A stretch of 64,000 bases of DNA from an uncultured virus (IMG/VR IMGVR_UViG_3300032294_001063). Taxonomy: Duplodnaviria; Heunggongvirae; Uroviricota; Caudoviricetes. Position numbers and translations under genes: made by a program. Shown here in pieces: positions 57,296 through 63,531 of the stretch. The stretch lies in the IMG/VR virus record IMGVR_UViG_3300032294_001063. One strand, given 5' to 3'. Below the pieces are notes generated by a model. That model searched no databases. It was not told where the DNA came from and saw nothing but the letters and a program-made list of their open reading frames with translations. Each line of letters opens with the position of its first letter. Position 1 is the first letter of the stretch.

Positions 57296-57822
57296 ATCCA
57301 TATCCTAGGTTCCCCCCTCCATTTAACACCTCTCTAATAGCCTCCTATGGCTTATTTTGACCTATTTTAGATAGTATCTACCATAAAATATACTACTAAT
57401 TCTTGACTAAATACTACTGATATATATGTAGTTAGATATACATGTAATTGGACCCCTCCATTTTACTCCACCGTAATCCACTTTGCTCCATATTGGAGCC
57501 CATGTCCTACTATATTTGAGGGATTTTGTCAATACCCTCGTAAATGGCATATTTGGCCCACATTGTCAAGGCTTCAGGGGCATTTAATATGTCCCCGTAA
57601 ACGGGAAATTTTGCCCACAATTTTGACAGATTTAGATCACATTCTGTTATATTCTATATATGTTTCTTTAAATAAATATACATTTATATTATATTTTCTA
57701 AAATTTTGAGGGATTTTTTATATGTCTTCGTAAACGGACAAATTGGCCCACATTTTTTCCACAAAAAATCCACAGGCTGTGGATAAACCTGTGGATAATT
57801 TGGGCTATATGTTAGATTAGAT
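57296..57822. other. Non-coding junction between convergent gene blocks; putative replication origin/terminus region
   Basis: No ORFs; three ~45-bp repeats; AT-rich tract; four DnaA-box-like 9-mers. Confidence 0.6.
57755..57798. promoter_or_regulatory. DnaA-box cluster
   Basis: TTTTCCACA 57755, AAATCCACA 57766, TGTGGATAA 57778 and 57790 (reverse complement TTATCCACA). Confidence 0.7.
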
Positions 57823-58239
57823 CTACATGTATGACTGATCTATATACACTCTATTGTTGTTGGTATTTGTTTCGTGTAACCAAGAGTATCTATAGTTTTG
57901 TTCCCGCTCTTTTGGTAAGCGGTCTATGATTGCTTTCCGCTCCGTGTTAGTTATAGGTAATTTAACATTGTTAAATGTATTCTTATCTTTTATCTTATCT
58001 ATAACTTGGTCTAGTTTGTATGCTATAGCAAGACCTTCTGATACCATACCGCCGTTTTCGACTTCTCGTTCATATCGTCTTGCTTGCTTCTCAATAACCC
58101 ACGCTACAACTTCCATAATGCGGTCTAGAGTATAAGTTGGTTGGTCTGCTAGGAAACCTCCCAGAGAAGCAGGGTTAAAGAAATGGTCTTCTGAGTAATT
58201 ACACAGAAGTTCTGCAATTTGTTGTTCTTTAGTTTTCAT
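57823..58239 (-). CDS. Hypothetical early protein
   Basis: TGTCAG-box promoter and AACGAAAGG leader. Confidence 0.65.
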   Translation of the reverse strand: MKTKEQQIAELLCNYSEDHFFNPASLGGFLADQPTYTLDRIMEVVAWVIEKQARRYEREVENGGMVSEGLAIAYKLDQVIDKIKDKNTFNNVKLPITNTERKAIIDRLPKEREQNYRYSWLHETNTNNNRVYIDQSYM

Positions 58240-60353: not shown

Positions 60354-60565
60354 AAGTAATCCTCATCTCCCTCTTTTAGATTATAGAATTTATTAAATTC
60401 AGATTGAACAAACTTATCTCCTGACATTTCAGCAAATTGCTTATCTGCATAATATTGCCCCTCGTCAAGATTGCTATTAATCCAATCTTCAAGTAATTGT
60501 TCTGCTATATCTTGATAGCAAGCGTCAATTACCATTTGATTTACATCTTCTAAGAAACTAGCCAT
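60350..60565 (-). CDS. Small acidic protein
   Basis: RBS AGGAGG; upstream TGTCAG-N10-TAGTAT at 60626-60605. Confidence 0.55.
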   Translation of the reverse strand: MASFLEDVNQMVIDACYQDIAEQLLEDWINSNLDEGQYYADKQFAEMSGDKFVQSEFNKFYNLKEGDEDYL

Positions 60566-61349
60566 TTAGTGCTTCCTCCTGTGTGTATGTTTTTTCATTT
60601 GCTAATACTACACTATGGGTCTGACATTCTGCCATTTCTACTTCATTCTGCCAAGAGCCCTGCCCACATTCGGAGCAGAATTCACCGCAGTCATTTTCGC
60701 AGTAATCCAATGTATCAAAAGATTGACAAGCATAGCAACGATTCTCATATTCTAGAATAGTTTTAACATCACCACGGACAATCTCTAGTTCTCCGCCCCA
60801 ACCTGTTTCTTCCTCATACTCTAATGTAAGAAGAGAGTTCGGAACAAGATTACTTAATTTAGTTAAGATAGTTACAGCAGGTGACCAAGCAGTTTCATAT
60901 TTATAGACAAGCCAGTTGTCATCACCTTCTGATTTATATTCAAGTAATTCTGTATTTGAATACTCTTCGTCATCACGAACGGCTACATCCCACTTAGTTC
61001 CCCAGTTGGAGTTATTCCACGAATACCAATCTTTTTGAGTTTTAGCAAACTCAACAGACTTCTTAAACCAATTAGGGTCATTGGTGTCAATACCACCACG
61101 AGAAGGTTGGCAAGCATATTCCTCATCAGTAATTCCGTCATCCTTATATGAGTGGATATTGTGGAAAGCAAAGACAGGATTATTATATTCAACCTGCTTA
61201 ATTTTGGTGGGGAAACCCATAGAAGAGATATCACCCATACCATAGTTCTCCATTGCTAATGTGAATGGACGATTTAGTCTTTCTTTGATAGAATCAATTT
61301 CCTCTTTAGGTCCTTGAATAGTTAACGTGTTATAACACCAATTTGGCAT
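60558..61349 (-). CDS. DUF1281/YubB-like protein with C-terminal Cys cluster
   Basis: MPNWC.N.L.I.G, WYSWN..NWGTKWD, ETAWSP. Confidence 0.7.
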   Translation of the reverse strand: MPNWCYNTLTIQGPKEEIDSIKERLNRPFTLAMENYGMGDISSMGFPTKIKQVEYNNPVFAFHNIHSYKDDGITDEEYACQPSRGGIDTNDPNWFKKSVEFAKTQKDWYSWNNSNWGTKWDVAVRDDEEYSNTELLEYKSEGDDNWLVYKYETAWSPAVTILTKLSNLVPNSLLTLEYEEETGWGGELEIVRGDVKTILEYENRCYACQSFDTLDYCENDCGEFCSECGQGSWQNEVEMAECQTHSVVLANEKTYTQEEALNG

Positions 61350-61374
61350 TTTATTTCCTTTCGCTAATAACCCA

Positions 61375-61396
61375 ATTATATATTAGACCACTGACA
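61375..61396 (-). promoter_or_regulatory. TGTCAG-N10-TATAAT promoter
   Basis: TGTCAGTGGTCTAATATATAAT. Confidence 0.75.
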
Positions 61397-61528
61397 TTTG
61401 TCTATGCAATATGGGTGTGTTTTACACCACATCCGATCAAAGCTGATCTCAATATGTGAAATTTCCAGGAATTAATATTGACATCCGTAAATAGCATATG
61501 ATACCCTCAGGTCTTTTGGGGGCCAAAC

Positions 61529-61677
61529 AAAAAATCCCTCAGCTAAGCTGAAGGATCTTAAGATAAGTAAGGCTGCTAGCAGAACGAAAGGAATTTAGTA
61601 TACGCTGCTTTATTTAACGACTTGGGGGAACCCCTGGTAGCCGCACCATACTTCAATGAAAAGGCCCGCTAGGACCT
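61529..61677 (-). ncRNA. Candidate small regulatory RNA (~150 nt)
   Basis: TGATATAAT at 61692-61684; 5' hairpin AGGTCC/GGGCCT; no ORF >12 codons; terminator ATCCTTCAGC-tta-GCTGAGGGAT-TTTTT. Confidence 0.65.
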
Positions 61678-61704
61678 ATTCATATTATATCATATCTTAG
61701 TTAA

Positions 61705-62109
61705 CTAAACTGAGAGAGTAACGTCAGCATACTTCTCAACAAAGTTACTTAGGTCCATAGTAAAGAGCGCTTCATTGCTCATCCCATTAACCTTGTTATC
61801 TAAGTCATTACGTGGAGCCTCTTCGTGAAGACTAAACGTTTGCTGTTGGAAATCGACAATAGCAATCTTGTGCTCATTATCGCCAATCTCATTTACGTGC
61901 AGGCCCCATCCAGTTTCTGAATTCCATTCATCTGCTACCATTTGACTGATTGTAATACGTGTAGCATATGATGGGTCATTCCACCTAGGACGTGCTTTAA
62001 ACACTGCCTCTGCTAATCGAGCAAGCATTTGGTGGCCCGCCCAGTGCCCGTATAGTACAATTGTATTTCCATTCGGCTGTACGAATCCGAAGTTTGCTCT
62101 GTCTCCCAT
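61705..62109 (-). CDS. Conserved phage hypothetical protein
   Basis: MGDRANF...LYGHWAG...RW.D.SYATR. Confidence 0.65.
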   Translation of the reverse strand: MGDRANFGFVQPNGNTIVLYGHWAGHQMLARLAEAVFKARPRWNDPSYATRITISQMVADEWNSETGWGLHVNEIGDNEHKIAIVDFQQQTFSLHEEAPRNDLDNKVNGMSNEALFTMDLSNFVEKYADVTLSV

Positions 62110-62466: not shown

Positions 62467-62679
62467 TTATCTCCCTGTATATCCAGTCGGCTCGTATTCA
62501 GATACGTATGATTCTTTTAAATTATACTTATCTCTAATCCGACTTACCTTCTCAATGCTACCAGTTCCAATGTTGAATGTCAATGGTGACAATGCCTGTG
62601 GGTCTAGCCCAATCATTTGTGCATCCCAATAGGCCATCTCCATAGATAGCCTATCAGGAGCAGTCAATTCAAAGTACAT
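62467..62679 (-). CDS. Hypothetical protein
   Basis: TAATG overlap. Confidence 0.55.
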   Translation of the reverse strand: MYFELTAPDRLSMEMAYWDAQMIGLDPQALSPLTFNIGTGSIEKVSRIRDKYNLKESYVSEYEPTGYTGR

Positions 62680-63332
62680 TATGCTTCCCTCACATAACAG
62701 ATTTCAGTATCGACAATCTCAATGTTGCCACTCTGTGAATCAACAAAAAGATTATCTGTGATTTCTGTTTCGAAGTCATAGTCTTCAAGTATGTTCAGGT
62801 CAATTGTTCCACTAACCTCGATGGTTGCGGTGAATTCAATTGTTCTAGTTAATTCAATGTTAAGCGCTTCAGCAATTGCACGAAGAGTATCTTGGTCATC
62901 TGAATCAGCATATGCTTCAGTGATAATATCTTTAACTGTATTAATGTTGGATTCAAATACCCCAACACGCTTTTGTGCTTGACGTCCATTGTGTAGGTCC
63001 CACTCAATGCTGGCAACCTTATCAGTTGCATATTCTGCATCTGAATAACCACGGATTACTTTGTATGTAACCAATAGGTTAGAGTTATATGTATCAGGAA
63101 CTACAGATGTTGTTGTTTCTGTTGTCATTTTATTTCCTTTCGTTTCTGTTATAGGTGTATCTGTATACGGTATTGTAGCATCTTCCACTGACAATAATGT
63201 GCAATTGGAGTTACATCGGCATGTGAGGTCCATCACACCCGCTGGCCATCCATATCCATCTTTAATTGTATATTCAATTAATGCGTCACAGTCTCCTGTG
63301 CACACCCAGGTATACTTTTGATATTTGGTCAT
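62679..63332 (-). CDS. Hypothetical protein with two probable in-frame starts (63332 and 63128)
   Basis: Leaderless ATG 63332; internal promoter and RBS before ATG 63128. Confidence 0.6.
   Translation of the reverse strand: MTKYQKYTWVCTGDCDALIEYTIKDGYGWPAGVMDLTCRCNSNCTLLSVEDATIPYTDTPITETKGNKMTTETTTSVVPDTYNSNLLVTYKVIRGYSDAEYATDKVASIEWDLHNGRQAQKRVGVFESNINTVKDIITEAYADSDDQDTLRAIAEALNIELTRTIEFTATIEVSGTIDLNILEDYDFETEITDNLFVDSQSGNIEIVDTEICYVREA
63172..63193 (-). promoter_or_regulatory. TGTCAG-N10-TACAAT promoter
   Basis: TGTCAGTGGAAGATGCTACAAT. Confidence 0.7.
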
Positions 63333-63338
63333 GCGAGT

Positions 63339-63360
63339 ATTATAGCGGTACCCACTGACA
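63339..63360 (-). promoter_or_regulatory. TGTCAG-N10-TATAAT promoter
   Basis: TGTCAGTGGGTACCGCTATAAT; ATG 6 nt downstream. Confidence 0.75.
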
Positions 63361-63457
63361 TATACAAGCTTTTCAGGGTGTTTTTTATGTGATCCGTAAC
63401 ACAGAAATTTCGCCTTCAAGGTTGCGGGCATCTCACATATTGATATTAAATTCTTAG

Positions 63458-63531
63458 CGATCCATAACGGACTTGAACCGTCGACCTCTACCGTGACAGG
63501 GTAGCGCTCTAACCAACTGAGCTAATGGACC
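63458..63531 (-). tRNA. tRNA-Asp (GTC)
   Basis: GGTCCAT/ATGGATC acceptor; TAGCTCAGTTGGTTAGAGC D-arm; CT-GTC-AC loop; GGTTCAAGTCC T-arm; no encoded CCA. Confidence 0.93.

Follow-up and report, generated by a model that had tools for sequence, protein, structure and literature searches.

What, if anything, is encoded in a gap of 355 nucleotides (nt) between two genes on the - strand of a phage genome? The question is raised by a stretch of 64,000 nt from the uncultured virus IMGVR_UViG_3300032294_001063 (Caudoviricetes), a phage sequence with a G+C content of 37%, which at its full length is called the window here. The gap separates a gene of 134 amino acids (aa; 61705-62109, phrog_31860), which lies upstream, from a 263-aa gene (60558-61349, DUF1281_C), which lies downstream, and the original prediction, made from the letters alone, had placed in it a - strand unit with an extended -10 element, a hairpin at the predicted +1, an intrinsic terminator and no real open reading frame (ORF). 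All of its coordinates and motifs proved to be correct, and we infer that the segment from 61677 to about 61526 on the - strand is the gene of an autonomous non-coding RNA, about 150 nt long, whose standing as a real and uncatalogued RNA gene we regard as close to certain. As to what this RNA would do, the best single mechanism that can be proposed, with a probability of about one half, is that an exposed loop acts by antisense pairing on the leaders of genes behind PafBC-type promoters and represses them.

Read along the - strand, the gap begins with the extended -10 promoter TGATATAAT (61692-61684), located 13 nt past the stop of the upstream gene, and continues with a 5′ hairpin of 6 pairs at the predicted +1 (P0, AGGUCC-UAGC-GGGCCU, 61677-61662), a U-rich stretch, a core of about 95 nt, and a terminator-like hairpin with its U run. 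The promoter box is conserved in all 26 aligned intergenic regions, and its pattern, TGnTAYAAT, lies in the first 45 nt of 60 of the 85 unique family sequences and at most 75 nt upstream of 72 of the 111 unique cores. For the P0 segment, 46 of 53 members reach a folding energy of -5 kcal/mol or better, with stems that differ from one another (AGGUCC/GGACCU, AGGCC/GGCCU, GGACC/GGUCC). At the other end, the intrinsic terminator, as read from the sequence (61559-61526 as a whole), consists of a 13-pair hairpin (61559-61531) followed by UUGUUU; 56 of 83 family members have, at the corresponding place, a strong hairpin with a run of at least 4 U, and the terminator sequence varies. Folding of the unit yields -46.7 kcal/mol (z = -2.54). 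The sole ORF within it is a 26-aa frame opening with TTG (61576-61656), which is not conserved. A short frame opening at the invariant GUG and closing at the UAA-N-UAA junction was also considered and rejected, because neither lengths nor peptides are kept: the frames range over 3-30 codons, and the 85 sequences yield 53 different peptides. Its own promoter, a terminator, the absence of a conserved frame and a covarying fold, four marks of a small RNA gene, are therefore all present on the evidence of the sequence.

The fold comes from the comparison of relatives, namely the IMG/VR loci that match the flanking proteins (64 + 80 = 144 loci). The intergenic gap is alignable across its full length in most of these related loci, and a profile search finds homologues of the RNA in 131 of the 144, amounting to 84 unique sequences. 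An alignment of 54 diverse cores gave, with RNAalifold, a three-way junction (61655-61563 in the window, - strand) of 17 pairs, 9 of them with double-sided changes. Within it, P1 joins 61651-61645 to 61573-61567; P2, whose tip is variable, joins 61644-61639 to 61622-61617; the junction strand UAAAUAAA occupies 61616-61609; and P4, which joins 61608-61604 to 61580-61575 with A61577 bulged, bears an apical loop at 61603-61581. When covariation is counted on that structure against 500 shuffles, 95.6% of 911 cells are paired versus 77.7%, the covariation score is 0.457 versus 0.138, and double-sided changes occupy 162 cells versus 52.2, a number that none of the 500 reaches; if the partners are slid by 1-3 columns, pairing falls to 23-46%. 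The check by covariation across related phages that had been suggested at the outset thus speaks for an independent, ORF-less structured RNA. The letters that remain invariant are GGU-GC..CUA, AG..GY-UAARUAAAGC and AGCAGCC.

This material also bears on the most skeptical explanation, according to which there would be no RNA gene here, but a site acting at the level of DNA, or the remnant of the ribosome-binding site (RBS) of a decayed + strand gene. It is true that the + strand segment reads AACGAAAGGAAT, which is RBS-like. However, no start codon lies on that strand at the distance expected from a Shine-Dalgarno (SD) sequence, the - strand promoter and terminator are conserved, and the compensatory pair changes, together with strand-specific G-U pairs, indicate selection on the - strand RNA fold. 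These G-U pairs (for example, U-G in 54 of 54 sequences at columns 14/96) would be mismatches if read from the + strand, and because they occur only on the - strand reading, the - strand is the functional one. The decayed + strand RBS, which the original prediction had itself named as an alternative, is excluded by this RNA-structural, strand-specific conservation, and the skeptical explanation in its general form seems to us hardly tenable.

How widely is the RNA distributed? The core pattern matches at least 120 viral contigs, and exactly one copy is found in each of the 5 canonical genomes that are complete or near-complete (>=92%; 109-116 kb). The window also holds a single copy according to both the profile and the covariance model, the latter giving it 84.4 bits (E = 9e-18), and the next match in the window, with 13.2 bits (E = 0.57), is noise. 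A degenerate core pattern has only 3 matches in 185,579 species genomes, all of them in contigs of 2.9-3.5 kb belonging to metagenome-assembled genomes. These three are labelled Bacteroidia, Polynucleobacter and ‘bacterium’ (L185-L187); they are probably mis-binned phage fragments and offer no guide to the host. The family is large and single-copy, and it belongs to freshwater phages of ~105-116 kb, the hosts of which are probably low-GC actinobacteria: an actinobacterial host fits both the PafBC-type boxes and SDs of the GAAAGG/AAGGAG type.

As regards the catalogues, a search of the whole window with Rfam 15 brings tRNA-Asp alone to threshold; in 61340-61720, at E up to 10, the best sub-threshold match is NsiR1 (E = 0.23), covering the terminator only, and 8 diverse family members have no match at E up to 1. 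The INPHARED phage collection contains no DNA match to the region, near or distant, and a literature search, judged at the level of its search results, found no published description of this RNA. Resemblances that come to mind, to the signal recognition particle RNA, 16S helix 18/45, the L11-binding region, tRNA loops, and hammerhead or twister cores, were discarded, as the letters covary away or differ in order, and no tool supports them.

The part of the core that lends itself to a functional reading is the P4 apical loop. In the window it carries the anti-leader segment AUUCCUUUCGUU (61594-61583, - strand), which includes the core word of the family, CUUUCGUU (61590-61583). The P4 tip occurs in four types, that of the window (..UACUAAAUUCCUUUCGUUCUG..), UUAC-UUUCGUUG-GUAG, CCU-UUCGUUG-AGG and AUUUC-UUUCGUUG-GAAAU, and despite their different flanks the 8-mer CUUUCGUU is common to all four. 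TTTCGTT is present in 115 of 123 pattern matches on viral contigs, among the matches listed, and TTCGTT in 60 of 67 unique P4 inserts; in 23 of these 60 it forms a hexaloop on top of a stem with 4 or more pairs. In full-length folds (n = 84) the mean unpaired probability of CUUUCGUU is 0.66, being at least 0.7 in 36 of them and below 0.4 in 5. The concern that the segment might turn out unconserved in homologues, or buried in a stem, has therefore not been borne out for its core, which is mostly unpaired. In several loop types the P4 tip also contains UUUACUU, complementary by eye to the AAGUAAA of the invariant junction strand just upstream, which hints at an alternative fold or a switch.

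To what could such a loop be directed? One answer is the host, if the loop paired with host SD regions or imitated the 3′ tail of the 16S rRNA and in this way disturbed host translation. The 16S rRNA tail of actinobacteria ends in ...CCUCCUUUCU, part of which equals the CCUUUC of the window loop, and SDs of the GAAAGG type are common in these phages. However, the CC that resembles the tail, within the UCC part of the supposed mimic, is kept in just 30 of the 115 loop-bearing members among the matches listed, so that mimicry of the anti-SD, an element of the original prediction, is not the conserved property. Furthermore, the conserved part reaches into GUU, which fits AAC in the phage leader but has no match in the 16S tail. 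An action on the host is, for these reasons, improbable.

The other answer lies in the phage itself, since the conserved word CUUUCGUU is the complement of the leader core AACGAAAG. In the window the leaders concerned are all on the - strand: AGCGAAAGG, in the SD region (61365-61357) of the 263-aa DUF1281_C gene starting at 61349, and AACGAAAGG before the gene starts at 58239 (58254-58246) and 59829 (59846-59838) and before the ATG at 63128 (63144-63136), the last inside the listed ORF 62679-63431. The window has 6 occurrences of RCGAAAGG where 1.61 would be expected, 6 being reached by 1 of 100 shuffles, and 4 of the 5 copies outside the RNA gene lie 5-7 nt before precisely these four - strand starts; AACGAAAG occurs 7 times against 1.55 expected. 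With the four leaders, AUUCCUUUCGUU pairs over 9, 10, 11 (one G-U) and 11 nt, hand reading and an automatic count of the longest run being in agreement, so that the complementarity of 9-11 nt originally proposed is upheld. When the 21-nt loop is taken alone, the four leaders rank 1, 3, 4 and 5 of 97 start regions by duplex energy. By hand reading, each loop type keeps 10-12 nt of complementarity to its local leader, in differing registers. Among loci that hold an RNA with UUUCGUU, 66 of 69, many of them near-identical, have [AG]CGAAAGG before the 263-aa gene; of 11 loci without such an RNA, 2 have [AG]CGAAAGG, 4 have CCGAAAGG, and 5 have AGAAAGG or AGAAGGA.

These four leaders share not only a word but a promoter, each following TGTCAG-N10-TAYAAT as had been claimed: at 61396-61375 (with TATAAT) for the gene starting at 61349, at 58282-58261 for 58239, at 59878-59857 for 59829, and at 63193-63172 before the ATG at 63128, all on the - strand. 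The hexamer TGTCAG alone is not enriched in the window (31 versus 30.6 expected); the composite TGTCRG-N10-TAnnnT is (8 versus 1.13 expected, reached by 0 of 100 shuffles), and 6 of the 8 are in the - strand block. At each of the five TAYAAT sites in the window the spacing is exactly N10, and the five aligned boxes show no conserved -35. This is the arrangement described for the PafBC-dependent promoters of Actinobacteria (‘sigma adaptation’), where the motif in vivo is tGTCgg(N10)tA(N3)T and where PafBC, activated by single-stranded DNA, enables the housekeeping holoenzyme to initiate from promoters with a -26 element and no -35 (PMC8635444); the boxes of the window match the core and the spacing exactly, likewise without a -35. 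Unlike the published promoters, these are phage copies that stand before small early genes, and the binding of PafBC to them is putative. A literature search, judged at search-result level, found no published PafBC-type promoters in phages.

The two remaining boxes of the - strand block differ in what follows them. A fifth promoter (63339-63360, - strand) has an ATG, at 63332, just 6 nt after its TATAAT, a layout that recurs in relatives and that suggests a leaderless message; the listed 250-aa ORF 62679-63431 probably hides separate starts at ~63332 and 63128. A sixth match, TGTCAG-N10-TAGTAT (60605-60626, - strand), precedes the start at 60565 with a GGAGG leader that lacks AACGAAAG.

Do loop, leader and promoter go together beyond the window? 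Seven related records were compared with it, counting promoters as TGTC[AG]G-N9-11-TAYAAT. The window and three genomes with the CUUUCGUU loop have 5 (in 64 kb), 12, 9 and 11 such sites, all on one strand and in one block, whereas a genome without the RNA (G003) has 3, and two genomes in which the RNA bears other P4 loops (G001, G002) have 1 each. An intermediate case, G005, has 10 sites: its P4 tip is AGUGUGG and has lost the motif, but its P2 loop carries CCCUUUCG, with a tip reading CACCCUUUCGG. Of the non-self sites of AACGAAAG, those at start regions are 5/6, 12/12, 8/10 and 9/10 in the window and the three loop genomes, 6/7 in the intermediate, and 5/9, 4/6 and 3/5 in G003, G001 and G002; SDs of the GAAAGG type are preceded by C in 31 of 54 cases in the loop group versus 11 of 57 in the group with no RNA or with another loop. 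This pattern is what the antisense idea predicts. Of the circuit of promoter box, leader and small RNA advanced at the beginning, the association of the three stands at the level of whole genomes. The anatomy of the unit, its conserved fold, the conserved and exposed loop, the complementarity, and the co-occurrence with promoter and leader cassettes are matters of observation.

The mechanism that these observations suggest would run as follows: (i) the P4 apical loop would present CUUUCGUU, or, in the window phage, the longer AUUCCUUUCGUU; (ii) the loop would base-pair in trans with AACGAAAG(G), the SD-bearing core of the short leaders that derive from PafBC-type promoters; (iii) the pairing would cover the ribosome-binding site; and (iv) as the RNA accumulated, the translation of the early messages, their stability, or both would be lowered. 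The conserved junction scaffold would probably add stability or bind a protein. The transcription of the RNA, its pairing with the leaders and the repressive effect are all three inferred from sequence comparison, and it is to this chain as a whole that the probability of about one half applies.

Several results weigh against it. If the segment is extended to 38 nt, to include the P4 stem, three of the leaders rank 2, 6 and 7 of 97 and the fourth falls below the top 10, a result that 7 of 200 shuffled 38-nt segments match in the duplex ranking; other start regions, too, reach complementary runs of 9-10 nt. No compensatory change between loop and leader has been found, A-to-G variants in the leader being merely tolerated as G-U. 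Genomes without the CUUUCGUU loop likewise have AACGAAAG at 3-5 start regions, and as it belongs to A/C-rich leaders, a strong SD context of the ordinary kind could account for part of the match. Behind the co-occurrence there are 4 genomes versus 3, plus 1 intermediate, which are mutually related and not independent events. At the 5′ end of the RNA, the hairpin with its U stretch could equally be the terminator of the upstream gene. Nor could a kissing interaction be established statistically for the 61349 leader, where AUAUC-AACGAAAG-GAUAU would set AACGAAAG in an 8-nt loop: 30 of 35 unique leaders allow a stem of 4 or more base pairs, but the covariation is weak (68.8% paired versus 65.1% in shuffles; score 0.039 versus 0.023, reached by 9 of 500 shuffles), and with shuffles made per lineage the observed stem is reached in anything from 4 to 500 of 500 trials.

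A further objection comes from the members that keep the scaffold with unrelated P4 loops, which are an ACA triloop (G001), CUGGGGGUGUU (G002), AGUGUGG, CCUCGAAAA and GUAAUU. Because such variants exist, the scaffold must have some function beyond presenting the CUUUCGUU loop, and because they retain it, the invariant junction (GGUGC, UAARUAAAGC, AGCAGCC) is left unexplained by antisense pairing. For the G-rich loop CUGGGGGUGUU no complementary target in a start region was found genome-wide: in G002 no run of at least 8 nt lies in a leader just upstream of a start, and there are two overlapping 8-mers a few bases downstream of one candidate start. A compensatory retargeting of this loop in L095 and G002, towards a GCCCCCA before the same gene, was considered and dropped, since the match there is of 6-7 nt only and 284 comparable 6-mer matches occur elsewhere. 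In three viral contigs (L223, L248, L257), whose P4 loop is CCUCGAAAA or CCUAGAAAU, a U run comes directly after P1, a TGTCAG promoter comes next, and a separate terminator hairpin is missing; in a distant scaffold variant (L264) a tRNA starts within 11 nt after the RNA.

The main rival to antisense repression is the following: the RNA would work through its three-way-junction scaffold, as a protein-binding RNA, a decoy or the RNA of a ribonucleoprotein, the complementarity of the loop being secondary or accidental. In its bold form, the RNA would be the ligand of a host protein with Sm fold and WYL domain, such as PafBC itself. In favor of it, what is invariant is the junction strands and helix ends and not the loop alone, and the scaffold persists in members whose P4 loops are quite different; the promoter that precedes the RNA is not of PafBC type; and the WYL domains of PafBC adopt the Sm fold, with RNA or some other nucleic acid as their proposed ligand (PMC6789036), in addition to the activation of PafBC by single-stranded DNA already cited (PMC8635444). 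Set against this are the retention of CUUUCGUU in 115 of the 123 listed matches and in four flank contexts, as the exact complement of the phage's own leader core, and the hypothetical nature of the protein partner. Since G001 and G002 keep the scaffold and yet have one PafBC-type promoter each, it is the loop, and not the presence of the scaffold, that tracks these promoters. A function residing in the scaffold alone is, in our estimate, unlikely on balance, though it is an explanation to be taken seriously.

A broader picture can also be drawn, in which a dedicated three-way-junction scaffold with an exchangeable antisense loop, fully complementary in most members to the SD leader of a PafBC-driven regulon, would be the missing trans partner of a start-associated leader. 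The phage would ride the DNA-damage alarm that the host possesses in PafBC to obtain an early burst of expression, and the RNA would then act as a timer that closes it; the variants with other loops, or with the motif moved to P2, would be the signs of a retargetable platform of regulators, whose scaffold might recruit a protein of the Sm-fold/WYL type. We put this forward tentatively, as something possible rather than probable.

There is still the position of the RNA to be considered, always ~200 nt upstream of the 263-aa gene in the canonical genomes, which would suit an element acting in cis: for the upstream gene a terminator or insulator, or, for the gene starting at 61349, an anti-SD element of long range or one akin to a riboswitch. 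The invariant bases at the junction give the three-way fold the look of an aptamer, and two variant contexts have no separate terminator, with a gene or promoter directly after. Nevertheless, past the terminator the gene starting at 61349 has a conserved promoter to itself; the terminator is free to vary in sequence and showed no alternative pairing with the core; in G001 and G002 the RNA lies elsewhere, ~1.5-1.8 kb past the 263-aa gene; and the complementary leader precedes 8-12 dispersed genes. The features expected of a riboswitch with a terminator platform are not seen here, the terminator being independent of the core, the downstream gene having a promoter of its own and the RNA being relocated in some genomes. 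A role in cis is very doubtful, and antisense repression in trans by the loop continues to be the reading that we prefer.

Beyond the terminator the gap contains further elements. On the - strand it continues with a conserved block (61525-61480), a palindrome, and the promoter and leader of the 263-aa gene. The block, GCCCnCA...UGAGGGUAnCAU...UUUACGG (61480-61525), which thus lies between the terminator of the RNA and the next promoter, is kept in 26 of 26 aligned intergenic regions; it was also considered as a small ORF and rejected, its internal ATG not being conserved. Three further units that bear TTTACG are found at 57544, 57601 and 57734 (- strand). The palindrome, GUGGUGU-AAA-ACACACC (61413-61431, - strand), stands directly upstream of the PafBC-type promoter of the 263-aa gene and is conserved, with some variation, in relatives.

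In the wider neighborhood, the window has a + strand replication block (DnaB, primase, Pol III alpha, RecA), a tape-measure and tail block, and, from ~57.8 kb onward, a block of small genes on the - strand. At ~57768-57800 (- strand), two words TTATCCACA, which we take to be the DnaA-box consensus, flank a terminator-like hairpin, and next to them lie ~550 nt of AT-rich DNA without genes (57.25-57.8 kb); these features may mark an origin-like region. A tRNA-Asp (GTC) is located within the early block at 63457-63531 (- strand).

Phage regulatory RNAs are known almost only from enterobacterial phages, and a review of them makes no mention of Actinobacteria (PMC12197685). What is presented here is an abundant and strongly covarying RNA family of uncultured lake phages with a concrete target set, of 4 to ~12 leaders per genome, linked to a single class of promoter. 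Were the pairing real, phage genes wired to the PafBC alarm of the host would gain a post-transcriptional off-switch, and even if the antisense idea fails, the invariant junction would represent a new structured RNA class worth cataloguing. Among the small RNAs of Gram-positive bacteria, RNAIII, RsaE/RoxS and 6C RNA are Hfq-independent and use C/U-rich hairpin loops to pair with purine-rich SD regions. The RNA described here is unrelated to them in sequence and fold, has no match in Rfam, presents CUUUCGUU and not a C run, and is phage-encoded; of the three, 6C is mentioned as an RNA of actinobacteria (PMC6789036).

The closest working model is nevertheless found among phages, and it is the c4 RNA of P1 and P7 (Rfam C4, RF01695), which is processed from a precursor. 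In c4, sequences presented in loops pair around the RBS of a phage mRNA and block its translation (PMC12197685). Both RNAs are phage-encoded, and action in trans, which is a property of c4, is here a candidate one; the trait that the two share is a loop complementary to phage RBS regions, over 9-11 nt and in four leaders in the present case. The likeness does not extend to homology detectable with the C4 covariance model, which has no match in 61340-61720 at E up to 10 and none in 8 family members at E up to 1. They differ as well in that c4 controls a single immunity operon of temperate enterobacterial phages, whereas a large actinobacterial phage would here have from 4 (in the window) to ~12 dispersed candidate leaders linked to promoters.

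On the side of the leaders, the comparison is with the SAS/ESAS of Cluster K mycobacteriophages, asymmetric repeats containing an SD that lie a few bases before the starts of some non-structural genes, and for which the authors left the reader open as “either RNA or protein” (PMC3203893). In both cases an SD-containing repeat stands in one orientation before the starts of non-structural genes and is more conserved than pairing with the 16S rRNA would explain (PMC3203893). The differences are that SAS has a 13-bp consensus, GGGATAGGAGCCC, compared with the AACGAAAGG or A(A/G)CGAAAGG found here; that the present leader repeat is tied to one class of promoter; and that the phage encodes a complementary RNA, while the available text on SAS reports no such partner (PMC3203893). 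If the pairing that we propose is real, this RNA would be the first RNA reader of a start-associated leader, that is, one of the two kinds of reader that were envisaged for SAS.

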